IMG/VR virus record: IMGVR_UViG_2703718778_000014
Length of the DNA stretch: 23,312 nt
Direction: 5' to 3' (one strand)
DNA from: a virus
Lineage: Duplodnaviria > Heunggongvirae > Uroviricota > Caudoviricetes
A program made the position numbers and the translations under genes. A model generated the notes under the pieces. It made no database searches. It saw only the letters and a list, made by a program, of their open reading frames with translations, and was not told where the DNA came from. Of this stretch, positions 5,088 through 21,891 are shown piece by piece. Numbering within the stretch: the stretch's first letter is position 1; the number at the start of each line of letters is the position of its first letter.

Positions 5088-5164
5088 TGGACCGCCATCG
5101 AGGACTCGAACCCCGCGCAGCCAGCTCCGAAGGCTGGCGCTCTATCCCGATGAGCTAATGGCGG
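5088..5164 (-). tRNA. tRNA-Arg, anticodon UCG (77 nt including CCA)
   Basis: Manual cloverleaf on the minus strand: acceptor CCGCCAT/ATGGCGG, D-arm GCTC...GAGC, anticodon stem CCAGC/GCTGG with loop CUUCGGA, T-arm CGGGG-TTCGAGT-CCTCG, 3' CCA. C1-G72 pair is unusual. Confidence 0.7.
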
Positions 5165-5173
5165 TATGTGATA

Positions 5174-5249
5174 TGGTGGCCCTTGCTGGATTTGAACCAG
5201 CGACCTGGCGATTATGAGTCGCTCGCTCTCACCACTGAGCTAAAGGGCC
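5174..5249 (-). tRNA. tRNA-Ile2 type with anticodon CAU (ileX/ileZ-like; tRNA-Met not formally excluded)
   Basis: Minus strand reads GGCCCTTTAGCTCAGTGGTGAGAGCGAGCGACTCATAATCGCCAGGTCGCTGGTTCAAATCCAGCAAGGGCCACCA; canonical arms, anticodon loop CUCAUAA; close to E. coli ileX as recalled. Confidence 0.8.
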
Positions 5250-5289: not shown

Positions 5290-6348
5290 TCATCCGTTCT
5301 GGCTGGCTAAATCCTGAACTTCCCTGACCGTCTGCTCAAAACGTTCAGTCTCCAGCTCAACGCCTGTAGCACGACGCCCCAACACCATCGCTGCTTTGAC
5401 TGTCGAACCCGACCCCATGAAGAAATCTGCAACCAGGTCACCCGGACGACTGCTCGCACTGATTATCTGCTGCAGCATTTCTGCCGGTTTTTCGCACGGA
5501 TGTTTCCCGGGATAGTACTGCACCGGTTTATGCGTCCACACATCGGTGTACGGCACCCGCACCGTCACACCGAAATACCGCCGCAGATGCTTATATTCAC
5601 TCTGCAGTTCCGTATACTGCCGGTTCAGTTCACTGTATGTGCTGACCAGTTGGTGATGTGGCTTTTCCAGTTCTCCGCGCTGATGCTTCTCTTCTGCCAC
5701 CCGGGCAAACAGCGCCTGTAATTTCAGATAATCGCTTTCGTCCGGTAACTGCCACTGGCTGGCACTGAACCAGTGCGACACCATATTTTTCTTTCCTGTG
5801 GCATCCACTATCTGTTTTGCCGTTATCCCCAGGGCAGCACGCGCATCACGAAAGTAAGAAATCAGCGGGGCCATCACATGCTGTTTCAGTGCCCTGCCCT
5901 TCGCCTCATACCCGGCATCTTTCGGGCGATACGGCCCCTGATAATGTTCCGCGAACAGAATGCGCTCTGTGGCGGGGAAATACGCCCTCAGGCTTTCCTT
6001 GTTGCACCCGTTCCAGCGTCCGGACGGCTTTGCCCAGATAATATGGTTCAGCACACTGAAGTGTTCACGCATCATGATTTCGATATCAGATGCCAGGCGA
6101 TGGCCACAGAACAGGTAAAGACTTCCGGCAGGTTTCAGCACCCGCCAGAACTGCGCAAGACACTGGTCCAGCCACTTCAGGTAATCATCGTCGCCCTTCC
6201 ACTGGTTATCCCAGCCCTCAGGCTTCACTTTAAAGTACGGCGGGTCCGTGACTATCAGATCAACAGAATTTTCGGGTAACGACCGGATAAATTCCAGGCA
6301 GTCAGCGTTGATTAACTCACAACTGGATATTTTTACAGTGTTAAGCAT
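5290..6348 (-). CDS. DNA methyltransferase, N6-adenine/N4-cytosine family (DPPY motif), 352 aa
   Basis: ATG at 6348; motif IV DPPY near the N-terminus (LIVTDPPYF) and motif I FxGxG near the C-terminus (DFFMGSGST), i.e. beta-class order; position after Q and before tRNAs as in Stx-type phages. Confidence 0.8.
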   Translation of the reverse strand: MLNTVKISSCELINADCLEFIRSLPENSVDLIVTDPPYFKVKPEGWDNQWKGDDDYLKWLDQCLAQFWRVLKPAGSLYLFCGHRLASDIEIMMREHFSVLNHIIWAKPSGRWNGCNKESLRAYFPATERILFAEHYQGPYRPKDAGYEAKGRALKQHVMAPLISYFRDARAALGITAKQIVDATGKKNMVSHWFSASQWQLPDESDYLKLQALFARVAEEKHQRGELEKPHHQLVSTYSELNRQYTELQSEYKHLRRYFGVTVRVPYTDVWTHKPVQYYPGKHPCEKPAEMLQQIISASSRPGDLVADFFMGSGSTVKAAMVLGRRATGVELETERFEQTVREVQDLASQNG

Positions 6349-6486
6349 GGATCATTAAGCCTGTCTCTGATAGGCTCATTCTGCTTTTGCGCAAAGCAGT
6401 GGGCCTGAGGTTTGCTTGTGATCCTGACGCATGAGCAGATGGCTGGTGAGTGCCCCTAACACCCACCAGCCGCCCATTTACCACAA

Positions 6487-6512
6487 ATAAAAAAGCCTTC
6501 AGGACTGAAGGC
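6487..6512 (-). terminator. Intrinsic terminator (minus strand), third of a stack
   Basis: Stem gccttcag (6495-6502) / tgaaggc (6506-6512); minus-sense transcript is followed by TTTTTTATTT. Confidence 0.4.
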
Positions 6513-6546
6513 GTCTGTAACAACCGAACTGATAGTCTGCCAGCCC

Positions 6547-9415: not shown

Positions 9416-10642
9416 ATGTCAGGAACCATAACAAAAATCAGCACAGGGGAAAATGTTCTGTCAGCAGCAATCCATCGCATTGAATGGTTGTTCGAAACGT
9501 TTAATGAGGTCTGCTTGTCTTTTTCTGGTGGCAAAGACTCTACTGTGCTTTTCCATCTTGTGGCAGAAGTCGCCAGTAGAAAAAAACGTCGTTTTTCGGT
9601 TTTATTCATTGACTGGGAAGCCCAATATCAGTGCACGATTAATCATATCCAAAAGATGAGGGAAATGTACCGGCATGTGACAGACAATTTTTACTGGGTA
9701 GCGCTTCCTCTGACTACGGTAAATGGCGTCTCTCAGTTTCAGCCAGAATGGATATGTTGGGAGCCAGGTGTAGAATGGGTTCGTCAGCCACCAGATGACG
9801 CTATTACAGATATGTCGTATTTCCCATTTTATCGGTATGCCATGACGTTTGAAGAATTTGTTCCGGCATTTTCTTCCTGGTTTGCCGGTAACCGATGTGG
9901 AGTGGGAATACTAACTGGTGTTCGTGCTGATGAATCGCTCAATCGCTTTATGGGACTGGTGTCTCAGCGCAAACTGAGATATGCAGATGATAAACCCTGG
10001 AGCACCGCTTCACCCGATGGTTTTTACTACACCATGTATCCATTGTATGACTGGAAAACAAATGATATATGGACGTATAACTCAAGAACCCGCGCCATCT
10101 ACAATCCCCTGTACGACCTAATGTACCGTGCCGGAGTGTCGTTACGCAACATGCGTGTTTGTGAGCCCTTTGGCCCGGAACAGCGTAAGGGGCTGTGGCT
10201 TTACCATGTTCTGGAGCCGGAAACCTGGGCCAGGATGTGTGAGCGAGTGTCAGGGGCTGCCAGTGGCGCTCTTTATGCCAATGAAAGCGGTGCCTATTTT
10301 GCTCTGCGTAAACGAATCACAAAACCGGCTCATCATACCTGGCGCAGCTACGCAATGTTCATGCTGGATGTTATGCCAGAAAGAACAGCAGAACATTACC
10401 GTAACAAAATTGCAGTCTACCTGCGCTGGTATCAGACGCGGGGCTTCCCGGATGATATCCCGGATGAACAGGAGAATGACCTGGGGAGCCGGGATATCCC
10501 GTCCTGGCGACGTATCTGTAAGACGCTCATAAAGAATGACTTCTGGTGCCGGACCCTCTCCTTCAGTCCGAACAAACCCCGGCACTATGAGCGTTATCTG
10601 CAACGAATGAAGGAAAGGAGGAAAGAATGGGGGATTCTGTGA
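9416..10642 (+). CDS. ibrA: PAPS-reductase-like PP-loop ATP pyrophosphatase (IbrA-like, DndC-like fold), 408 aa
   Basis: PP-loop motif SFSGGKDS near the N-terminus; 3' end overlaps the next gene by 16 nt. Confidence 0.65.
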   Translation: MSGTITKISTGENVLSAAIHRIEWLFETFNEVCLSFSGGKDSTVLFHLVAEVASRKKRRFSVLFIDWEAQYQCTINHIQKMREMYRHVTDNFYWVALPLTTVNGVSQFQPEWICWEPGVEWVRQPPDDAITDMSYFPFYRYAMTFEEFVPAFSSWFAGNRCGVGILTGVRADESLNRFMGLVSQRKLRYADDKPWSTASPDGFYYTMYPLYDWKTNDIWTYNSRTRAIYNPLYDLMYRAGVSLRNMRVCEPFGPEQRKGLWLYHVLEPETWARMCERVSGAASGALYANESGAYFALRKRITKPAHHTWRSYAMFMLDVMPERTAEHYRNKIAVYLRWYQTRGFPDDIPDEQENDLGSRDIPSWRRICKTLIKNDFWCRTLSFSPNKPRHYERYLQRMKERRKEWGIL

Positions 10643-11271
10643 CGCCTGAGATGGATGTACTAAGCAACATGATTCGTCAGTACTTCAGTCGGGAACAGCC
10701 CGAAGAAGAGTCCATACGAGCCCTTAACCATCTGCGCAGGGTACTGCATGAAGTCAGTCCTTTTGCACAGGAGCCTGTAGACTGTGTGCTGTGGGTGAAA
10801 GCGGATGAGGTGGTAGCCAACGATTATAACCCCAATGTCATGGCACCAAGTGAGAAGAAACTGCTGAAGCAGTCACTGGAAAAAGATGGTTTCACACAAC
10901 CGGTGGTGGTGTCAGAGGAGAAGAATCATTATCTGGTGGTGGATGGTTTTCATCGTCAGTTATTGGGCAGAGAATCAGTTACAGGAAAACGTCTGAGGGG
11001 CTGGCTGCCTGTAGCCTGTATTAATCCAGAGAGAAAAGGGCAAGCCGCACGCATTGCCGCAACCATTCGACATAACCGGGCTAGGGGGAAACACCAGATA
11101 GACTCAGTGTCTGATATTGTAAGAGATCTTTCACGCTTGGGATGGGCAGATGAACGCATTGGCACTGAGTTGGGTATGGATCAGGATGAAGTACTGAGAC
11201 TTAAACAAATTAGCGGGCTAACTGAGTTATTTCAGGAAGTGGATTTCAGCCCGGCATGGACAGTTAAATAG
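10627..11271 (+). CDS. ibrB: ParB N-terminal-domain (ParB/sulfiredoxin-like nuclease) protein (IbrB-like), 214 aa
   Basis: Strong RBS AAGGAGG; ParB-box-like HYLVVDGFHR and basic TIRHNRARG block; translationally coupled to the upstream gene. Confidence 0.65.
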   Translation: MGDSVTPEMDVLSNMIRQYFSREQPEEESIRALNHLRRVLHEVSPFAQEPVDCVLWVKADEVVANDYNPNVMAPSEKKLLKQSLEKDGFTQPVVVSEEKNHYLVVDGFHRQLLGRESVTGKRLRGWLPVACINPERKGQAARIAATIRHNRARGKHQIDSVSDIVRDLSRLGWADERIGTELGMDQDEVLRLKQISGLTELFQEVDFSPAWTVK

Positions 11272-14056: not shown

Positions 14057-14370
14057 TCCTGAACCCTCCTGTCGAAATAAACGTAGTTATTCACTGCGCC
14101 CAACTTCATCCCAAACTTTTCGGCAATTTCCCGTTGGGGTACGCCACGCTGATGCAGTTGCCGCGCCAGCTCAATATCACGCTGTGAGAATTTGGCTGAC
14201 TGGTGATAATCACCCCGTAACATCATGCTGATCCCCAGTTCCCGCGCTTTCGTCCTGACGGCTGACTCACTACGGCCAATCAGATAACCGATGCTTTCGA
14301 CTCTCATCGTTCCCGCACACTGCCGGAGTATCAGGATTTCAGCCCAACGCCACTTCTTCCAGCCACTCAC
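14053..14370 (-). CDS. Putative DNA-binding protein with two helix-turn-helix-like segments
   Basis: GTG at 14370 overlapping the stop of the 44-aa ORF (GTGA); segments SESAVRTKARELGI and QREIAEKFGMKLGAVNNYV look like HTH motifs; the ORF-track upstream extension to 14457 looks non-coding. Confidence 0.4.
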   Translation of the reverse strand: MSGWKKWRWAEILILRQCAGTMRVESIGYLIGRSESAVRTKARELGISMMLRGDYHQSAKFSQRDIELARQLHQRGVPQREIAEKFGMKLGAVNNYVYFDRRVQE

Positions 14371-14501
14371 CGCTGCTGCTCTCTGGTGGTGGTAATATCC
14401 CGGAGAATATCCCTGTGTTTGTTCAGTTCCCGCAGCGCAGCACAGACTCGCTCCCACTTCTGGACATCACTTTTCGCCCGACGCAGTTCGCGGTTTGCCA
14501 T
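14367..14501 (-). CDS. Small basic protein (44 aa), translationally coupled to the downstream HTH gene
   Basis: ATG at 14501, 6 nt after the preceding gene's stop; MANRELRRAKSDVQKWERVCAALRELNKHRDILRDITTTREQQR; not in the ORF track (short). Confidence 0.3.
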   Translation of the reverse strand: MANRELRRAKSDVQKWERVCAALRELNKHRDILRDITTTREQQR

Positions 14502-14507
14502 ATGCAG

Positions 14508-15083
14508 CTATGGTAAAACCAGGTCATCCGCTTGCGTTTCGGTGAACAGTGGCAACGACTGCACAATATCCACCACAGTTTCTGTTTTAATATCTTCCTG
14601 TGTAGTCGTTTGCTGGACTGGTAACGCAACACCTGCTGGCTGAGGAAGGGCTTTACCATCCGTTTCCGCTACAGATGCGGCTTTCGGCTCTACTGGTAAA
14701 TTATCGCCCGGCATGCAGTAACGAAATTTACCGCCCTGATTCACGCGAATCAGACGCCCTTTGCTGATTGCCATTGCCAGCGATGAATTCGCACGGCGGG
14801 AGGTAATTCCGAACATCAATGCCAGCTCATCCGCCGTTTGTGGGCCATGTTGTTCAATCGCCTCTGTCAGCATTTGCGCCGTCACTTTTGGTGGTTGTAT
14901 CACAGATTCACTTTCCCCTGCCTGAGTCAGCCACCACATCGCCCCCCTGTTATCCGCTTCACCACGGCGTTTCAGTTTCCACAGTTCGTTGACAGCCTCT
15001 TCACGACTGATTCCAAGGCGCGCAGCCACCACATGTGAAGAGGCTTTTTTCAGTGCTTTCAGTGCGTCAGATACGGTTTCCAT
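14508..15083 (-). CDS. Phage protein with N-terminal winged-helix-like domain (191 aa)
   Basis: ATG at 15083 with RBS GGAGGA; N-terminal [34 protein letters not shown]; family not firmly recognised. Confidence 0.5.
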
Positions 15084-15104: not shown

Positions 15105-15851
15105 TTACTTCACAACCCTCATATTGCTGACATTTGGACGCCAGCTATCCCAGTTAAACGTCACCCATCGACCACCGTTCATGGTCATGCGGTCCATAAT
15201 CCTCTCACCAAGAAGCGTACTCATTGCGGCATGATTCAGGTTTGTTAACATCCCGACACTGCACAGTGATGCTGTCCGGCGATCAATTATCTGGTGCAAT
15301 ACCACCTGCTCGTTTTTCGTCTCCCGCTGGACGCCTATTTCATCCAGGACCAGCAAATCAACCCCGCAAAGCTCCTGTAAAAATTTTTCCCCGGATTTGC
15401 CGTTGTCGTAGCTGTCATGCAACACGCTCATGACGTCAGACACGGTGACGATAATCACGCTGCGCCCCTTCACCATCAGCCGGTTGCCCATCGCCGCTGC
15501 AAGGTGATTTTTCCCGGTGCCGGTTTTACCGCTGAACACAAAATTCGTGCACCCGGTCATCAGTTCGTCAGCTATGGATTTGGCCTAGCTCAGCGCGTAT
15601 TTTTGCCCGTCGTTCTGCACCTGATAATTTGCAAACGAGCATTTGCTGTGCAGAGGCTGGATGCCCGAACGATTCAGGATTTTTTCCACCCGCAACTGGC
15701 GATTCTGGCAGTTAATCTCCTCGCTGCGTTTTCGTCCTTCAGCAAGTTGCCATTCCCGCCACTCCTCCACCGTCCGGTACGGTGGAACCGCCCCCAGTGG
15801 TGCAAGTCTGCGAATACATTCAAGAACCCCAACTGCCGCAATGTTTTTCAT
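15105..15851 (-). pseudogene. DnaC-like helicase loader (YdaV-like) interrupted by a single in-frame amber codon
   Basis: N-terminal fragment (15588..15851, ends ...FANYQVQNDGQKYALS) and C-terminal fragment (15105..15560, FSGKTGTGKNHLAAA Walker A) are in one frame separated by TAG at 15585-15587; read-through gives ...KYALS*AKSIADELMTG..., collinear with E. coli DnaC. Confidence 0.7.
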
Positions 15852-16848: not shown

Positions 16849-17274
16849 TTAGTGCATCACCACAGCATTCCCTGCCGGGCCGCCGCGATTCATCTGGTCA
16901 TACAAAACAACCGCTGACGCAACAAAATCATCGACATCCTTCACCAGCCGATCCCTCCGTTCGACGATCTCACGGTAATATTCAGAACTGTGGCTGCGCA
17001 TACGGGCCACCAGCAAAGGCGGCATCGCCTTTTCGATCGCCGGTAACAGAGCCTGCATTTTTTCAACAGCATCAGGGGTGTCTTTATCCAGCCAACGGAA
17101 AATTTTCTGTGTATTACGGGCCAGGGCTTCCGGATGGCTGTCGTCGTACAGTTCAGGGAACGTCATCCCCAGTTCGAAATAAGTCCGGGCTATTTCAGCT
17201 GCAGGAACTTTCTCACCGTCCGGATAGGCCCAGGCATTGATCGCCATGCGGATGTGCTCATGCTTGATTTTCAT
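16849..17274 (-). CDS. YdaT-like protein (Rac-prophage-type early gene, 141 aa)
   Basis: ATG at 17274 with RBS AGGAG; position between the Cro-like and O-like genes as ydaT in Rac; assignment by gene order and size. Confidence 0.45.
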   Translation of the reverse strand: MKIKHEHIRMAINAWAYPDGEKVPAAEIARTYFELGMTFPELYDDSHPEALARNTQKIFRWLDKDTPDAVEKMQALLPAIEKAMPPLLVARMRSHSSEYYREIVERRDRLVKDVDDFVASAVVLYDQMNRGGPAGNAVVMH

Positions 17275-17539
17275 GAATCAAGCTCCTAGAAAGTGGTTGT
17301 GTTAACGTTTTGGTATCTTCCAGCTCAGGCCAAATATTCATCCAATCAAAAGGCCTTAGTTGCTGACGTGTAACTTCACCATTACTGGCTCGCTCAATAA
17401 GGACACATAACGATGCCCCTAACACTTGGCCTTTACTCAATGCCTTTCTTAGATAACCGATGCTGGTACCACACTCGCATGCAAACATACGCTGTTCATC
17501 TGACGAAAGAGAATTGAGAAATATTCTTAATTCTTCCAT
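17258..17539 (-). CDS. Cro-like / YdaS-like HTH regulator (93 aa), first gene of the early-right operon
   Basis: ATG at 17539 with strong RBS AAGGAG; HTH-like segment CECGTSIGYLRKALSKGQ; divergent from the repressor gene across the operator cluster. Confidence 0.5.
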   Translation of the reverse strand: MEELRIFLNSLSSDEQRMFACECGTSIGYLRKALSKGQVLGASLCVLIERASNGEVTRQQLRPFDWMNIWPELEDTKTLTQPLSRSLIHENQA

Positions 17540-17564
17540 AGCTACTCCTTAGTAAACACAGCAA

Positions 17565-17646
17565 AGAATACCTATAGGTAAACAAAAGTCAATACCTTTG
17601 GGTTGTTTACCTTACGGTAATCACATCTATTATTTACCTATGGACA
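17565..17646. promoter_or_regulatory. Right operator cluster with divergent pR-like and pRM-like promoters
   Basis: Palindromes TACCTATAGGTA (17569-17580), TACCTTTGGGTT (17593-17604), TACCTTACGGTA (17608-17619), TACCTATGGACA (17635-17646); minus-strand -35 TTGACT (17592-17587) and -10 TATTCT (17570-17565); plus-strand -10 TATTAT (17628-17633) ending 6 nt before the repressor ATG. Confidence 0.45.
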
Positions 17647-18059
17647 AATATGAATTTAGACGACAGCAGCTCATCAAAATTCGTGATGAGAAATGCGATG
17701 GTAAAGCGGTTAACGTAGCCAGAAAGATCGGTCGCGAGCCTTCTTATGTATCAAGAATGTTGTACCCAGAGGGGAAAAAGGGAAAAAAACGGATCGCTGA
17801 TGATATGGTGGAGATTATCGAAGAGTCCTTTGGGTTACCCCGAGGATGGATGGATGGTATCGTTTCATCATCAACGAACACAGCCTCCAATTATGAAACA
17901 AGGGTTCTAACGCCACGACAACGTATTTTTTTAGATCTCTTAGACGAGCTGCCAGAAAGTGAAGCGGATAACTTATTAAAAACTCTTGAAGAGAAAAAAC
18001 AGTATTACAATATGATCTACGAAGAAATCCGTAAAAAGAAAGCACAAAACGCATCATAA
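17640..18059 (+). CDS. Prophage repressor (CI/RacR-like, HTH)
   Basis: HTH-like segment GKAVNVARKIGREPSYVSRML; ATG at 17640 lies just downstream of a -10 element, suggesting a leaderless mRNA; the ORF-track start at 17598 would lie inside the operators. Confidence 0.55.
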   Translation: MDKYEFRRQQLIKIRDEKCDGKAVNVARKIGREPSYVSRMLYPEGKKGKKRIADDMVEIIEESFGLPRGWMDGIVSSSTNTASNYETRVLTPRQRIFLDLLDELPESEADNLLKTLEEKKQYYNMIYEEIRKKKAQNAS

Positions 18060-18104
18060 CTCACCAAACAACCAGTCACCAGTTAAGACGCCTGAAAAAA
18101 AGTT

Positions 18105-18145
18105 ACCCATGGGTATTTACTTTTTGGGTACCCATGGGTATGCTC
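18105..18145 (+). promoter_or_regulatory. Left operator pair overlapping a pL-like promoter
   Basis: Two copies of the perfect palindrome TACCCATGGGTA (18105-18116, 18130-18141) flanking -35 TTTACT (18117-18122) and -10 TATGCT (18140-18145), 17-nt spacer. Confidence 0.4.
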
Positions 18146-18325
18146 CCTTTCATACCAACCCACTCCGCCCCACAGAATGCAGGGCAATACCTCGAGTTAC
18201 CCGGCAGTGGTCAGGGGTTAAGTAGCCAGCCCGAGGCGTATGAACATGACGGCGGGAACACTTTGTATAACAGCGCAGCAGGTTTTTAGTTCCGCTACCC
18301 GGCGTTAAGGGTAAATGGGGTCAAC

Positions 18326-18478
18326 ATGGATACTATCGAGCTTGGCAACAACGAATCTCTGGTGTGCGGAGTATTCCCCAACCAAGACGGCACGTTTACC
18401 GCGATGACGTATACCAAAAGTAAAACGTTTAAAACCGAAGCTGGCGCGCATCGCTGGTTAGCCAGAAACGCTAACTGA
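18326..18478 (+). CDS. Small conserved phage protein (50 aa), possibly YdaF-like
   Basis: ATG at 18326; MDTIELGNNESLVCGVFPNQDGTFTAMTYTKSKTFKTEAGAHRWLARNAN; short, not in the ORF track; family recalled only loosely. Confidence 0.35.
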   Translation: MDTIELGNNESLVCGVFPNQDGTFTAMTYTKSKTFKTEAGAHRWLARNAN

Positions 18479-18746
18479 TTAGCGCCAGTAAAAACAGGTT
18501 TCCACAGGTTAATTTACCCTGAAAAGTCAGGGCATAACACGAAAGCGCACGGCGAGATTCCTTTGCATATAAGGTTAGATTTCTTCGACCGTGCGCTTCC
18601 GGTTGTGGCAATCCGCGAAATGGCGCGGCGGTAAGTATGGCGGGGTTATTCCTTCCCCCGTTGAGGACACCGGGTTGTCAGGTTGACCATACGCTTAAGT
18701 GACACCCCAGCCACAACAACCTCTGTTATCACTTTTCTGGTGATTC

Positions 18747-18773
18747 GGCGGAAATGAATATCCGCCCTTTTTA
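18747..18773 (+). terminator. Intrinsic terminator in the early-left leader
   Basis: Stem ggcgga (18747-18752) / tccgcc (18761-18766) followed by CTTTTT. Confidence 0.4.
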
Positions 18774-18950
18774 AAGTGAATTTTGTGATGCTGTGAATGC
18801 GGCTATGCGCACGCGGAACAGTTAAAGCAGTAAGGCGGTCTTTTACTGGCGTAACGAGCATCAACTAACCCGACGTTAATTGTTAACTGGTTAACGTCAC
18901 CTGGAGGCACCAGGCGCTGCATCACAAAATTCATTGTTGAGGACGCGATA

Positions 18951-19139
18951 ATGGAAACGTTATTACCAAACGTTAATACGTCTGAAGGTTGTTTTGATAT
19001 TGGTGTTCTGCTCAGTAATAAAGCGTTTACTGAGGATGCCATTAATATGCGGAAATATGAGCCTTATCTGCTCAATGATAATTCCATTCTTTCCCGAATT
19101 GCCCTTATTAAACTTGGTATTTTCGGAGAACGTCAATGA
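18951..19139 (+). CDS. Hypothetical protein (62 aa) in an AT-rich insert
   Basis: ORF in a locally AT-rich segment (about 18900-19200); stop overlaps the ATG of a 17-codon hydrophobic ORF (19136..19189, MTSAFALVMTVFLITGE). Confidence 0.3.
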   Translation: METLLPNVNTSEGCFDIGVLLSNKAFTEDAINMRKYEPYLLNDNSILSRIALIKLGIFGERQ

Positions 19140-19419
19140 CTTCAGCATTTGCACTGGTGATGACGGTTTTTCTTATAACGGGTGAATAACAGAATGTGAT
19201 TACCGGAATTTATGCCAGTAAAGAATCCTGCCTCCAGGCAAGAGACGAGCAAAAAATTTCTGGTGAATGCCTACCGGTAAAAAAAGTATCGCTGAACCTG
19301 AATAACGAAACACCGGCTGGATAACCCGCCAGCCATATTAACGCCATACCAACGGATTAAAAATGCCAGCAATAGCAGGGATTCGTTCACCCTGAAATCT
19401 GTAATGAGGTTAAAACACA

Positions 19420-21891
19420 ATGAATAAAATCTTTATTTGCGCTGCTATTCCTGACGAACAGGCCATAGAAGAAGATAGCGCTGTTGCGGTGGCCACTGCC
19501 ATTGAAGCCGGTGATGAGCGTCGCGCACGCGCAAAATTTCACTGGCAATTTCTGGAGCAATTCCCGGCAGCTCAGGACTGCGCTTATAAATTTATTGTCT
19601 GCGAGGATAAACCCAGTATACCCCGCCCTGCCCTCGATTCCTGGGATACCGAATATATGCAGGAAAACCGCTGGGATGAGGAGTCTGCGTCCTTTGTCCC
19701 GGTCGAACCCGAATCCGATCCGATGAACGTCACTTTTGACAATCTGGCCCCTGAAGTACAGAACGCCGTCATGGTTAAGTTCGACGCATGTGAAAACATC
19801 ACTGTTGATATGGTGATTAGCGCTCAGGAATTGTTGCAGGAAGACATGGCAACATTCGACGGCCATATCGTTGAAGCGTTGATGAAGATGCCAGAAGTTA
19901 ACGCCATGTATCCGGAGCTTAAGCTGCATGCCATCGGGTGGGTTAAGCATAAATGTAAACCTGCTGCTAAATGGCCCGAAATTCAGGCAGAGATGCGCAT
20001 CTGGAAAAAACGTCGCGAAAGTGAACGCAAGGAAACCGGGAAATACATATCTGTCGTTGATATCGCCCGTTCCAGAGTAAACCAACAGAACACTGAAAAC
20101 GCTGCTGAAAAAACCGGGGCTGTCACTGTTGCCGTTCGCCGCGAATACAAACAGACATGGAAAACACTCGACAATGAACTGGCCTGCGCCCTCTGGCCCG
20201 GTGATGTGGATGCAGGAAACATTGACGGTACCATCCATCGCTGGGCGACAAATGAGGTTATCGACAAGGATCGCGAAGACTGGAAGCGTATCTCAGCATC
20301 AATGCGCAAACAGCCCGAAGCACTTGCCTATGACCGTCAGACTATTTTTGGCCTTGTTCGCGAACGTCCGATCGATATTCACAAAGATCCCGTTGCACTG
20401 AACAAATATATCAGCGAATACCTGACGACAAAGGGCGTGTTTGAACATGAAGAAACAGACCAGAGCTCTGCTGATGCTCTCCAGTCACCAGCAGCACAAA
20501 CTGCTCCAGTGGAGACGGCAGAATCCGATACTCAAAAAAATGAAATCCTGGTGGAAGCTGAACCATCTGTAGAGCGTGAAGGACCATTTTATTTCGTCTT
20601 TACCGATAAGGGCGGGGAAAAATACGGCAGGGCAAACAAACTTTCTGGTCTGGACAGGGCGCTGGCTGCCGGCGGTACCGAAATCTCAAAAGAAGAATAT
20701 TTTGCCCGAAAAAATGGCACATACACGGGCTTACCGCAAAATGTGGATAGCACTGAAGATTCCGAACAACCAGAGCCGGTAAAAGTTACCGCTGACGAAG
20801 TAAACAAAATTATGCAGGCAGCCAATATCAGCCAGCCTGACGCCGATAAATTGCTTGCTGCATCACGTGGTGAATTTGTTGAAGGGATTAGCGACCCGGA
20901 TGATCCGAAATGGGTGAAAGGGATCCAGAGTCGCGACGCTGAGGACCAGAATCAGCCCAACGTGAAACAAAATGAGCCAGAAGCGGAACAAAACAGCCCG
21001 GATACGCAACAAAACGGGCCAGAAGAACAACAACCAGAACCAGCAGTGCAACAGGAACTGGAAAAAGTTTGCACCGCATGCGGTCAGACCGGTGGCGGCA
21101 ACTGTCCTGACTGTGGTGCGGTGATGGGGAACGCAACCTACCAGGAAACATTCGATGAAGAAAATCAGGCTGAAGCTCAGGAAAATGATCCGGAGGAAAT
21201 GGAAGGCACTGAACATCTGCACAAGGAGAACACTGTCAGCGATCAGTATCACGCCAGCGATAATAAAACTGGCGAAACAGCAAATCCCTTAATTAAAGTG
21301 AACGGTCATCATGAAACCACATCCACCAGCAGGTTGTGGCACCATCTGATGATTGACCTTGAAACAATGGGAAAAAATCCTGATGCGCCAATAAACGCTA
21401 TAGCCGGTAAGTTTTTTGATCCGGCAACCGGAGAGATGGGGCCAGAATTCAGCAAAACTATCGATCTGGAAACCGCAGGCGGGGTCATCGATCGGGACAC
21501 CATTAAGTGGTGGCTGAAACAGTCACGCGAAGCACAATCCGCCATTCTGACCGATGAAATCCCGTTGGATGATGCACTGCTGCAATTCCGGGAATTTATC
21601 GACGAAAACTCCGGTGAATTTTTTGTTCAGGTCTGGGGTAACGGTGCAACTTTCGACAACGTGATTTTACGCCGTTCATATGAACGGCAGGGGATCCCCT
21701 GCCCGTGGCGTTACACCAATGATCGCGATGTAAGAACGATGGTTGCTCTGGGACTGGTGATGGATTTCGACGCAAGAACGACTATTCCATTCGAAGGTGA
21801 ACGCCATAACGCGCTGCACGATGCGCGTTACCAAGCAAAATACGTTTCAGCCATCTGGCAAAAACTGATCCCGAGTCAGGCTGATTTTTAA
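19420..21891 (+). CDS. Large phage protein with C-terminal DEDDh (DnaQ-like) 3'-5' exonuclease domain, 823 aa
   Basis: RBS GAGGT; C-terminal motifs MIDLET (Exo I), WGNGATFD (Exo II), HNALHDARY (Exo III, DEDDh type); acidic low-complexity middle region with a CxxC-x7-CxxC zinc-ribbon-like motif (KVCTACGQTGGGNCPDCG). Confidence 0.65.
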   Translation: MNKIFICAAIPDEQAIEEDSAVAVATAIEAGDERRARAKFHWQFLEQFPAAQDCAYKFIVCEDKPSIPRPALDSWDTEYMQENRWDEESASFVPVEPESDPMNVTFDNLAPEVQNAVMVKFDACENITVDMVISAQELLQEDMATFDGHIVEALMKMPEVNAMYPELKLHAIGWVKHKCKPAAKWPEIQAEMRIWKKRRESERKETGKYISVVDIARSRVNQQNTENAAEKTGAVTVAVRREYKQTWKTLDNELACALWPGDVDAGNIDGTIHRWATNEVIDKDREDWKRISASMRKQPEALAYDRQTIFGLVRERPIDIHKDPVALNKYISEYLTTKGVFEHEETDQSSADALQSPAAQTAPVETAESDTQKNEILVEAEPSVEREGPFYFVFTDKGGEKYGRANKLSGLDRALAAGGTEISKEEYFARKNGTYTGLPQNVDSTEDSEQPEPVKVTADEVNKIMQAANISQPDADKLLAASRGEFVEGISDPDDPKWVKGIQSRDAEDQNQPNVKQNEPEAEQNSPDTQQNGPEEQQPEPAVQQELEKVCTACGQTGGGNCPDCGAVMGNATYQETFDEENQAEAQENDPEEMEGTEHLHKENTVSDQYHASDNKTGETANPLIKVNGHHETTSTSRLWHHLMIDLETMGKNPDAPINAIAGKFFDPATGEMGPEFSKTIDLETAGGVIDRDTIKWWLKQSREAQSAILTDEIPLDDALLQFREFIDENSGEFFVQVWGNGATFDNVILRRSYERQGIPCPWRYTNDRDVRTMVALGLVMDFDARTTIPFEGERHNALHDARYQAKYVSAIWQKLIPSQADF

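Follow-up and report, generated by a model that had tools for sequence, protein, structure and literature searches.

The 1360 nt between the end of the repressor gene (18059) and the start of the gene for an 823-aa exonuclease (19420) very probably constitute a dicBF early-left operon, complete and minimal, from an E. coli lambdoid prophage integrated at ompW in a Shiga-toxigenic host. The window referred to here is the whole stretch of phage DNA that was analyzed, 23,312 nt, and the region in question is 18060–19419. From left to right, it contains two operators with a weak pL-like promoter, ydfA, the pre-DicF leader, a DicF-type RNA that is also a terminator, a spacer, dicB, and ydfD, followed by the exonuclease gene, xis, and int. 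The dicBF operon is already known, and the one in the window, the smallest natural form, is ordinary apart from a shortened DicF allele and a stop codon in ydfD. Annotated STEC chromosomes that have dicB and genes for DUF1391, DUF1482, and the exonuclease match the stretch with 100% identity, and 4746 of 5426 complete E. coli genomes and 85 phage records, among them mEp460_ev081 and PPompW phages, match parts of it. The same order of repressor, ydfA, a variable cassette, DicF, dicB, ydfD, and exonuclease, with conserved junctions, is found in K-12 Qin, O157:H7 ATCC 43889, and STEC299, as well as in the deposited phage genomes Tritos, mEp460_ev081, and HannyBb; DicF is annotated in Tritos, and the gene order there matches that of the window. 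Every feature picked out in a preliminary description of this region is present at or near its coordinates.

The repressor is a DicA-type prophage protein of 139 aa (17640–18059, plus strand), encoded divergently from a cro-like gene at 17258–17539. Over its full length, it matches PHROG 5736, 'transcriptional regulator' (E = 4.7e-70), and it resembles K-12 DicA in its C-terminal 46 aa, with 33% identity (E = 1e-7). A Pfam scan of the protein gave no match and no LexA-type peptidase domain. The palindrome TACCCATGGGTA occurs as a distal OL operator at 18104–18115, directly upstream of a putative −35 hexamer, and as a proximal OL operator at 18129–18140, where it overlaps the promoter spacer and the −10. 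Exact copies of TACCNNNNGGTA are found at only four places in the 23.3-kb window, these two and 17569 and 17608 in the gap between the cro-like and repressor genes. With up to one mismatch, there are 19 matches to the palindrome, compared with 5.2 expected, and this number was reached in no shuffle. The operators were also detected as repeat D9/I8. Reading the K-12 sequence shows the same geometry at dicBp, with one operator upstream of the −35 and one over the spacer and −10. We place a putative pL-like promoter, equivalent to dicBp, at 18116–18144 on the plus strand (−35 TTTACT at 18116–18121, a 17-nt spacer, and −10 TATGCT at 18139–18144) on the basis of this operator geometry and of the analogous dicBp, a lambda PL-like promoter repressed by DicA (PMC10448788). 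It agrees with the consensus at 8 of 12 positions, below the scan threshold of 9 of 12, and hence was not called by the scan. The region has the DicA-type repressor, the divergent cro-like gene, and the operator-controlled promoter upstream of ydfA that characterize dicBF, the promoter being putative, weak, and of the sigma-70 type. The TACC-N4-GGTA sites are seen in the sequence, and binding of the repressor to them would keep the operon silent in the lysogen. Derepression would then give a transcript running from about 18151 through a 175-nt leader and ydfA.

The 5′ untranslated leader of the operon (18151–18325, plus strand) is C-rich and unstructured at its start, and its folding z-score of +1.38 (18151–18335) means that it is no more structured than shuffles. 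It is nearly identical in O157 ATCC 43889, despite the different LexA-family repressor and operators there, and of the 12 phage records with a match to the leader, 11 show 86–89% identity. Prophages of different immunity types have this leader in common. The start of a 51-aa ORF (18134–18289), which gave no Pfam match, is upstream of the putative −10. The first gene of the operon is the ydfA homologue (DUF1391, 50 aa, 18326–18478, plus strand), which is the conserved 50-aa ORF of the preliminary description. Its product matches PF07151 (E = 3.5e-29), is 88% identical to K-12 YdfA, and is annotated in RefSeq as WP_000379611.1. The ydfB and ydfC genes, which lie between ydfA and dicF in K-12, are both absent from the window. 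This slot varies among relatives, being empty in O157 ATCC 43889 and holding other genes in STEC299, and ydfB is missing in ATCC 8739 (PMC5069750). Thus, ydfB and ydfC are not universal in the family.

The stretch of about 290 nt that had been described as having no credible ORF (18479–18772) indeed has no supported ORF; the small ORFs on both strands are without Pfam match, and the sole one on the plus strand, at 18591–18686, contains a 1-nt indel relative to K-12. The suggestion that this leader might encode a regulatory RNA is borne out by homology, since it corresponds to the K-12 DicF precursor followed by a DicF-type RNA and terminator. A hairpin at 18540–18601 (plus strand; inverted repeat I9, with arms 18540–18552 and 18589–18601, 92% complementary) is present in the minimum-free-energy fold and is equivalent to the RNase III site for the long DicF 5′ end. 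A long DicF species of about 190 nt is made in K-12 in an RNase III-dependent manner (PMC10448788), and alignment places its 5′ end at about 18596 in the window. The noncoding body of the leader (18596–18733, plus strand) is almost invariant among relatives, with column conservation of at least 90% in 92 unique related sequences, while the flanks vary; K-12 and the window align almost without differences between the RNase III hairpin and the 5′ end of DicF, and once more downstream of the terminator. The analysis of covariation in the leader gave only a handful of compensatory cells, as the sequences are too similar. By analogy with K-12, RNase III cleavage at the 18540–18601 hairpin and RNase E cleavage just before 18734 would cut the precursor to give a long product of about 175 nt and a short one of about 35–40 nt, both ending at the terminator at 18747–18772.

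Could this leader instead be a cis-acting element for processive antitermination, nut-like or similar to put of HK022, that allows RNA polymerase to pass the DicF terminator and transcribe dicB, the exonuclease gene, xis, and int without N? The operon has an intrinsic terminator at its middle and yet no N gene, and the roughly 140 nt before DicF are not only almost invariant but have a folding z-score of −3.66, in favor of such an element. There is also a boxB-like hairpin, CCCUGA-AAAG-UCAGGG, to be read at 18517–18532 on the plus strand, and its CCCUGAAAAG is similar to the 5′ half of lambda boxB. However, in K-12 and about half of the 92 related sequences, the 3′ arm of this hairpin is CAGACC, with no compensating change, so the stem is broken there, and a search of the plus strand of the region for boxA found none. 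No arginine-rich N-like gene follows the promoter; the only conserved ORF is ydfA, and the other small ORFs have no Pfam match and are not annotated in RefSeq. BLASTN against HK022 24000–32000, a stretch that we assume to contain pL and put since the record does not list cI, nun, pL, or put features, gave a best match of 14 nt (E = 0.08). [quoted passage not shown] We consider antitermination by the leader very unlikely, and the 18517–18532 hairpin is probably not a nut site, contrary to the other suggestion of the preliminary description. The reading as a DicF precursor also agrees with K-12, where most transcripts stop at DicF (PMC10448788).

The DicF-type RNA itself is short (18734–18772, plus strand), with 13 single-stranded nt on the 5′ side, UUUCUGGUGAUUC, followed by a 6-bp hairpin and U5, and it is at the same time the intrinsic terminator that had been noticed at the end of the untranslated stretch. 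The stem at 18747–18766 has 6 pairs, 5 of them G-C, with a loop of 8, and is followed by T5 at 18768–18772. The terminator scan counted 4 in comparison with 2.4 expected, which is not significant alone; the significance of this hairpin comes from its homology to the DicF terminator rather than from the scan count. Like dicF, the locus is bounded by the pre-DicF leader and the leader of dicB and has an intrinsic terminator at its end, and its position, its upstream flank with the context of the RNase E site, and its downstream flank are homologous to those of K-12 dicF. Compared with K-12 DicF (RF00039), the window allele has the same first 10 nt, UUUCUGGUGA, the same terminator stem base (GGCGG/CCGCC) and U-tail, and the same position between the same flanks. 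However, it is 34 nt long before the U-tail rather than 53 nt, and so 19 nt shorter, positions 11–15 are altered, and the K-12 apical segment UAUCAGUUUUACUCCGUGACUGCUCUG is replaced by AAAUGAAUAU. The Rfam model RF00039 does not match 18000–19500 even at E up to 10, nor any part of the window at the gathering threshold, whereas the K-12 positive control scored 76.7 bits against a gathering score of 48. At the gathering threshold, the model also misses the near-identical short copy of O157 ATCC 43889, and it misses the short, 64-nt, Stx, and Rac-type versions alike.

DicF in K-12 represses ftsZ, xylR, pykA, and manX; its seeds have been assigned, and pairing with the ftsZ ribosome-binding site is required (PMC5069750). 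Unconstrained RNAduplex predictions for the DicF variants and target leaders contained huge internal loops, with energies no better than those of shuffles. With 22-nt windows, which give simple predictions that leave out a null distribution, accessibility, and Hfq effects, the K-12 duplexes recover the published pairings, with xylR by nt 4–18 (−20.3 kcal·mol−1), ftsZ by nt 31–52 (−21.9 kcal·mol−1), and pykA by nt 29–50 (−23.0 kcal·mol−1). The best duplexes of the short allele are −11.4 kcal·mol−1 with ftsZ and −13.0 kcal·mol−1 with pykA, and for xylR the best site draws on nucleotides of the terminator. The K-12 seed CUGGUGACGUUUGGC pairs with xylR +7 to +21; the window has CUGGUGAUUCGGC, in which only GGUGA is still contiguous. 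The 3′ segment complementary to ftsZ is deleted or replaced. Thus, the apical segment for pairing with ftsZ and pykA is missing from the short allele, these pairings are predicted to be lost or weakened, and the xylR seed is interrupted. As judged from its sequence, it lacks two features that define DicF, the match to the Rfam model and the ftsZ complementarity, and it is its position and flanks that earn it the name 'DicF' here.

Of the 5426 complete E. coli genomes, 470, about 9%, carry the short allele, counted where at least 80% of a 121-nt query designed for it was covered; the K-12 type is present in 3997. It occurs also in O157:H7 and E. albertii. The loop variants AAATGAATAT, AAATGGATAT, and AAACGGATAT recur, with the stem kept, and at least five different hairpin and seed versions (K-12, short, 64-nt, Rac/kil, and Stx types) are found at the DicF position between conserved flanks. 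A scan of genome contigs with the terminator flank found Escherichia and Shigella loci only, plus chance matches in unrelated genomes. A literature text search for 'DicF-like', partial in its coverage, returned nothing relevant; Melson & Kendall 2019 and Faubladier & Bouché 1994 may describe variants.

What is the function of this short RNA? It most likely acts mainly as the terminator or attenuator of the operon, and at most as an sRNA with a different set of targets. The alternative is that the hairpin is a functional trans-acting, Hfq-dependent sRNA with targets of its own, and that the DicF position is a cassette at which seeds and loops are exchanged between prophages. It has the minimal architecture of an sRNA, in which a single-stranded 5′ end of 13 nt precedes a G+C-rich hairpin with a U5 tail. 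Conservation covers its first 10 nt and the RNase E context upstream of it, the allele has been kept in the roughly 470 genomes as well as in O157:H7 and E. albertii, and several versions of hairpin and seed share the one position. However, the known DicF pairings are lost or weakened, a plain terminator would also be conserved, and variation in the loop with a constant stem is equally well explained by a pure terminator. On balance, we regard a trans-acting role as possible, though rather unlikely. A stronger form of this idea, in which the DicF position is a swap site for alternative sRNAs on a common terminator scaffold and the short allele is a separation-of-function DicF with distinct targets, is offered only as a speculation that we think will probably prove wrong.

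Downstream of the terminator, the spacer before dicB (18777–18933, plus strand) is strongly structured, with a folding z-score of −3.75, and is closed by a perfect 15-bp helix of 18777–18791 with 18919–18933 (inverted repeat I3, 100% complementary). The dicB Shine–Dalgarno sequence, GAGGA, follows at 18939–18943. RNAalifold with 39 sequences keeps the closing helix, with compensatory changes in 4 of 37 pairs and a covariation term of −0.72, at low sequence diversity. The same element is located upstream of kil in Shigella phage 75/02 Stx. The terminator would stop part of the transcription, and the read-through RNA would carry the helix-closed spacer, which is likely a further site for RNase III or for translational control. 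The invariant pre-DicF leader and this spacer may be RNA domains that gate a toxic division inhibitor. The spacer was also considered as a copy of STnc100/PasD (RF02076), with which it has in common a 23-nt hairpin motif, CACCUGGAGGCACCAGGC, and an overall layout in which a long closing helix surrounds inner hairpins. This assignment was rejected, at 21.8 bits compared with a gathering score of 47 (E = 0.034) and with a BLAST similarity that is limited to the single motif. Three true copies of STnc100 are present elsewhere in the window.

The 62-aa ORF at 18951–19139 (plus strand) is dicB, the gene for a cell-division inhibitor. It matches PF05358 over 62 of 62 positions (E = 1.3e-35), its product is 65% identical to K-12 DicB, and RefSeq annotates it as WP_000449168.1, the same protein that is annotated in O157 ATCC 43889. 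It lies downstream of the DicF locus, as in K-12. By analogy with K-12 Qin, the source of the roles given here to RNase III, RNase E, partial termination, and DicB, this protein would inhibit division via MinC and exclude phages that depend on ManYZ. The start of ydfD, a homologue of DUF1482 lysis proteins (19136–19324, plus strand), overlaps the dicB stop in ATGA at 19136–19139, and a ydfE-type exonuclease gene follows, as expected for dicBF, though ydfD carries an in-frame TAA at 19187–19189 that splits it into 17 and 42 codons. The 17-codon hydrophobic peptide that had been seen coupled to the 62-aa ORF (19136–19189) is the N terminus of YdfD, cut short by this TAA. In the alignment, the window has GAA TAA CAG where O157 has GAA TCA CAG, a C to A change at 19188. 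The remaining 42 codons are annotated in RefSeq from a GTG at 19196, and this C-terminal part matches positions 19–57 of the DUF1482 profile (E = 2.3e-8). The intact YdfD of O157 ATCC 43889 is 47% identical to that of K-12. Lysis requires intact YdfD (PMC8835842), and the single TCA to TAA mutation seen in the sequence inactivates this IspG-targeting lysis gene. A G+C-rich hairpin over the ydfD stop codon (19314–19335), flagged by the scan on the minus strand, may mark where the dicB-ydfD transcript ends or is processed; the longest transcript detected in K-12 stops after ydfD (PMC10448788). The junction between ydfD and the exonuclease gene (19325–19419) is conserved in K-12, O157, and STEC299. 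The 823-aa exonuclease (19420–21891, plus strand), followed by xis and int in an order that is seen directly in the sequence, is the full-length counterpart of the truncated K-12 ydfE. It matches PHROG 2082, 'exonuclease', over its full length and has a Pfam Rv2179c-like 3′-5′ exoribonuclease domain at residues 641–813 (E = 7e-62).

The region had been described as a decayed lambda-like early-left region that lost N, cIII, kil, gam, and bet by deletion and then acquired an AT-rich insert of foreign origin, its tiny ORFs being without meaning. Several of the observations behind this description are correct. An N-like ORF is lacking, as are Bet, RecT, Erf, and a Red-type exonuclease; the annotation of the whole prophage segment includes no annealase, and the domain of the exonuclease is of the DEDD-type Rv2179c-like class, not PD-(D/E)XK. 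The GC profile confirms the AT-rich segment, with 0.365 for dicB and 0.418 for ydfD in comparison with a window mean of 0.491 (SD 0.040, 400-nt windows). However, 7% of the 400-nt windows have GC of 0.42 or less, and the cro/repressor segment is equally AT-rich (0.40–0.41), so the dip is not unique. The nonsense codon in ydfD, two pseudogenes in the replication region of the prophage, and the absence of the ydfB and ydfC of K-12 and Tritos would also be in keeping with decay. Against it, the layout and junctions are identical in genomes deposited as complete phages and in many prophages of different immunity types, which contradicts deletion of a recombination module; since the layout is the same in the deposited phages and in O157:H7, the absence of N and Red genes, and likewise of cIII, kil, gam, and bet, is normal for this phage family and does not reflect a deletion. 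The conservation of the ydfD–exonuclease junction extends back to K-12, and the ydfB/ydfC slot is a variable one, with unrelated genes in STEC299. The tiny ORFs are a full-length dicB and a ydfD mutated once, and these AT-rich genes are at their family-typical position, contrary to the proposed acquisition of foreign DNA. Homology has largely refuted the proposal of decay, which we now find scarcely credible. The genuine decay is limited to the one nonsense codon in ydfD and the two replication-region pseudogenes, which are outside the region.

With the dicBF reading, the annotation changes from a degenerate region with junk ORFs to a defined, experimentally studied module, a repressor-controlled operon with DicB, which inhibits division and excludes ManYZ-dependent phages, an inactivated ydfD, and a short-DicF sRNA/terminator locus. 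The absence of N and Red becomes a trait common to this family of STEC prophages. Only the short DicF allele merits follow-up, and the wider interest of the region lies in it alone. A link of DicF to virulence has been made in EHEC, for which 'four copies' are given (review PMC7873438). An allele that keeps the locus without the known pairing regions and escapes Rfam annotation could confound reasoning from copy number, and it may have other targets. If the DicF position were a swap site, the 'DicF copies' of pathogens would be functionally different, yet counted as equal or overlooked, and the short allele would no longer repress ftsZ, pykA, or xylR.

The closest known system is the dicBF operon of K-12 Qin (dicA/dicC, dicBp, and ydfA-ydfB-ydfC-dicF-dicB-ydfD-ydfE). 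Gene order and orientation match those of the window, a DicA-type repressor has its operators around a pL-like promoter in both, the pre-DicF leader, DicF 5′ end, terminator flank, and dicB leader are near-identical, and the same exonuclease gene is downstream. The two differ in immunity, that is, in the repressor N terminus and the operators. The window has a longer 5′ leader, no ydfB or ydfC, a nonsense codon in ydfD, and the short DicF; in Qin, ydfE and intQ are pseudogenes interrupted by IS2, whereas the exonuclease gene, xis, and int of the window are intact. The early-left operon of lambda (OL/pL, nutL, N, tL1, cIII, kil, gam, bet, exo, xis, and int) occupies the same place on the lambdoid map, downstream of the repressor and toward xis and int. 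Both have an operator-controlled promoter, an internal terminator, and a host division inhibitor, which is Kil in lambda and DicB in the window. However, the window is without N, nut, cIII, gam, bet, and the Red exonuclease; its exonuclease is the 823-aa protein with the DEDD-type Rv2179c-like domain, and its DicA-type repressor does not have the LexA-like cleavage domain. Finally, Rac-type prophages and Stx phages carry DicF-like hairpins upstream of kil. Their 5′ part and loop differ from those of the window, they are followed not by dicB but by kil or another gene, and in the Stx phage copy the pre-DicF leader is largely absent, but the terminator flank CCGCCCTTTTTAAAGTGAATTTT is the same, and, as in the window, a structured spacer precedes the gene for the division inhibitor.

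The 1360 nt that separate the repressor gene (17640-18059) from the exonuclease gene, which starts at 19420, were read in the preliminary description as a degenerate early-left region. The inventory of features given there is accurate. A 50-aa ORF at 18326-18478 (+) matches DUF1391/YdfA (Pfam, 3.5e-29) and is followed on its 3' side by about 290 nt without any supported ORF. At the end of this stretch the terminator scan placed a hairpin with its stem at 18747-18766 (+), followed by T5 at 18768-18772. Further downstream are a 62-aa ORF, dicB, at 18951-19139 (+), which matches the whole Pfam DicB profile (1.3e-35), and a 17-codon hydrophobic ORF that overlaps the dicB stop (ATGA). The AT-rich segment is also real: in the GC profile, dicB has a GC content of 0.365 and ydfD of 0.418, and the window averages 0.491 (sd 0.040, 400-nt windows). 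The segment of cro and the repressor is equally AT-rich.

We found that 17550-19500 is 100% identical to the chromosomes of several Shiga-toxigenic E. coli, and parts of it are matched in 4746 of the 5426 complete E. coli genomes, in which dicBF-like loci number roughly 11,000. RefSeq gives the order as a hypothetical protein (the repressor), DUF1391 protein, dicB, DUF1482 protein, exonuclease, excisionase and integrase, adjoining ompW. Pfam matches confirm these assignments, including those for the ORF at 19196-19324 (+; DUF1482/YdfD, 2.3e-8) and for the 823-aa exonuclease from 19420 (+; Rv2179c-like 3'-5' exonuclease domain, 7e-62). Judged by sequence, the region is thus the dicBF operon, a system already known.

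The exact palindrome TACCNNNNGGTA has four copies in the whole window. Exact matches at 17569 and 17608 lie between cro and the repressor, and identical copies, TACCCATGGGTA, are at 18104 and 18129 downstream of the repressor (exact match; repeat D9/I8). A putative promoter at 18116-18144 (+), with -35 TTTACT, a 17-nt spacer and -10 TATGCT, can be read between and over the two downstream palindromes; it agrees with the consensus at only 8 of 12 positions, and the scan did not call it. This operator-promoter geometry is that of dicBp in E. coli K-12, which has been described as PL-like and DicA-repressed. The repressor matches PHROG 5736, its C-terminus resembles DicA (E 1e-7), and no peptidase domain was found in it with Pfam; by these similarities it is DicA-type. 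The 175-nt leader 3' of the promoter is shared with a prophage of O157:H7 ATCC 43889 that has a different repressor and operators, and the folding test found no unusual structure in it. A 51-aa ORF of this leader has its start upstream of the -10 and no Pfam family match. The conserved leader also contains, at 18240-18308, a possible upstream ORF of 22 codons (MNMTAGTLCITAQQVFSSATRR), with GAGG 3 nt 5' of its ATG. The annotated ydfA-like ORF of phage Tritos is 78 aa long; it begins within the corresponding leader, in frame with the ydfA-equivalent start and 81 nt 5' of it.

Two stretches are near-identical in the alignment with K-12: about 18580-18743, and 18762 up to the dicB start codon, the latter with the exception of a variable block of roughly 55 nt at about 18812-18866. 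The corresponding K-12 stretch is the DicF precursor: an RNase III cut in the polycistronic dicBp transcript sets the 5' end of a 190-nt species, an RNase E cut makes the 53-nt DicF, and transcripts of 1146 nt, ending at DicF, and 1608 nt, reading through to ydfD, are known (PMC10448788). The 5' end of the 190-nt species aligns to about 18596, within the 3' arm of a hairpin (arms 18540-18552 and 18589-18601, +) found by both the repeat finder and the minimum-free-energy fold, and the DicF 5' end aligns to 18734. From the mapped ends and the hairpin, the previously described leader with terminator is the dicF locus, which bears out the suggestion that it could encode a regulatory RNA.

The DicF of the window (18734-18772) reads UUUCUGGUGA-UUCGGCGG-AAAUGAAUAU-CCGCCC-U5. 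It has 34 nt before the U-tail, whereas K-12 DicF has 53; the apical hairpin part UAUCAGUUUUACUCCGUGACUGCUCUG of the K-12 RNA is absent, and positions 11-15 differ. K-12 DicF scores 76.7 bits with the Rfam DicF model (gathering score 48). At E up to 10 the model gave no match to this short allele, and it also missed three other versions of the locus. The short allele is the only element of the region missed by known annotation resources. DicF pairs through its 3' region with the ftsZ ribosome-binding site and through its 5' end with xylR (PMC5069750). In windowed duplexes, taken as raw predictions without a shuffle control, K-12 DicF nt 4-18 pair with xylR +7..+21 (13 contiguous pairs, -20.3 kcal/mol), nt 31-52 with ftsZ (-21.9 kcal/mol) and nt 29-50 with pykA (-23.0 kcal/mol). 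The short allele gives -11.4 with ftsZ, -13.0 with pykA and -18.7 with xylR, but terminator nucleotides are used at the xylR site. The allele recurs in viral contigs, O157:H7 ATCC 43889 and E. albertii, in three loop variants with an unchanged stem. By query coverage it is present in 470 of 5426 complete genomes (121-nt query around the allele, coverage ≥80%), and the K-12 type in 3997. To judge from these occurrences, the short allele is not a private lesion. At least five hairpin/seed versions occupy the DicF position between the same flanks, among them a kil-upstream Stx-phage copy and Rac-type copies.

Between DicF and dicB, the fold and the repeat finder gave a long-range helix of 15 perfect base pairs (18777-18791 with 18919-18933, +). 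Several hairpins lie inside it, and its end is 5 nt 5' of the dicB Shine-Dalgarno sequence. The element persists in 39 distinct sequences, kil-upstream copies among them, with compensatory change in only 4 of 37 pairs and a covariation term of -0.72. We infer that this spacer may be a processing or translational-control element, e.g. a second RNase III site. Membership of the STnc100 family was rejected, as the likeness is confined to one 23-nt motif.

The 17-codon ORF is the hydrophobic N-terminus of ydfD, and the RefSeq 42-aa DUF1482 protein from GTG 19196 is the remainder in the same frame. Codons 17-19 read GAA TAA CAG in the window and GAA TCA CAG or GAG CCA CAG in the relatives, O157:H7 ATCC 43889 and E. 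coli STEC299; the alignment thus gives a single C>A at 19188, creating an in-frame stop at codon 18. Action of the lysis protein YdfD on IspG requires the intact protein (PMC8835842), so the ydfD allele of the window is most likely inactive. A 10-mer within ydfD, TTTCTGGTGA at 19257-19266, is identical to the DicF 5' end and is not kept in K-12 ydfD; being in the same sense and non-complementary, it implies no pairing. The DicF 5' 13-mer has three matches with ≤2 mismatches in the window, against 0.77 expected.

The preliminary description ascribed the region to deletion of the recombination module and acquisition of foreign DNA. The absence of N and Red genes and the AT-richness on which this was based hold: the small-ORF search found no N-like ORF in the region, and neither boxA in the plus-strand search of the region nor a conserved boxB in the alignment of relatives was seen. 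There was also no similarity to an 8-kb HK022 stretch presumed to contain put. Deletion and a foreign insert do not hold, as the same module stands directly 5' of the same exonuclease in phage genomes deposited as complete. Phages with this arrangement are Tritos (DicF annotated), mEp460_ev081, HannyBb and the PPompW phages, and the ydfD-exonuclease junction is kept in K-12, O157:H7 ATCC 43889 and STEC299. On these comparisons the region is not degenerate. Genuine decay is the ydfD stop codon and two replication-region pseudogenes outside the region, and nothing more. The latter, a DUF1627 gene (14367-15083, -) and a DnaC-like ATP-binding replication gene (15105-15851, -), are RefSeq pseudogenes with internal stops, so the prophage is probably defective in replication.

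Elsewhere in the window, downstream of the region with the Q antiterminator and the tRNAs, are three tandem copies of STnc100 (Rfam RF02076; 3131-3332, 3397-3592 and 4062-4274, -), with scores of 164, 121 and 172 bits (gathering score 47). A 2026 preprint connects STnc100 with the PasD small RNAs found in pathogenic E. coli. Two phage-borne tRNA genes (5088-5164 and 5174-5249, -) lie between Q and these copies. The ARAGORN calls are tRNA-Arg(tcg) and tRNA-Met(cat). In RefSeq the second is a tRNA-Ile, an annotation that would agree with lysidine modification of the CAT anticodon. A PAPS-reductase-like and IbrB-like (ParB-like) gene pair on the opposite strand (9416-11271, +), inside the nin/Q-proximal region, has the look of a moron cassette. 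The window and strain S19-651 (NZ_CP075852.1) are collinear at 99.98-100% identity, but the strain has 271 extra bases at about 6275-6546, by their appearance a duplication or indel close to the Q-upstream region; the window thus comes from a different, very close strain.

The dicBF operon of the cryptic prophage Qin in K-12 reads dicC, dicA, ydfA, ydfB, ydfC, dicF, dicB, ydfD, ydfE, which is the order of the window. YdfA of the window is 88% and DicB 65% identical to the K-12 counterparts, and K-12 YdfD shares 47% identity with the intact YdfD of a close relative. Gene content differs from K-12 only by the missing ydfB and ydfC. Their slot is empty in O157:H7 ATCC 43889 and holds unrelated genes in STEC299, where the interval from ydfA to the pre-DicF leader (L124, 2442-3033) contains a pair of unrelated hypothetical genes, one on each strand. 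Thus, this position is a variable cargo site, and the window has the minimal form of the operon.
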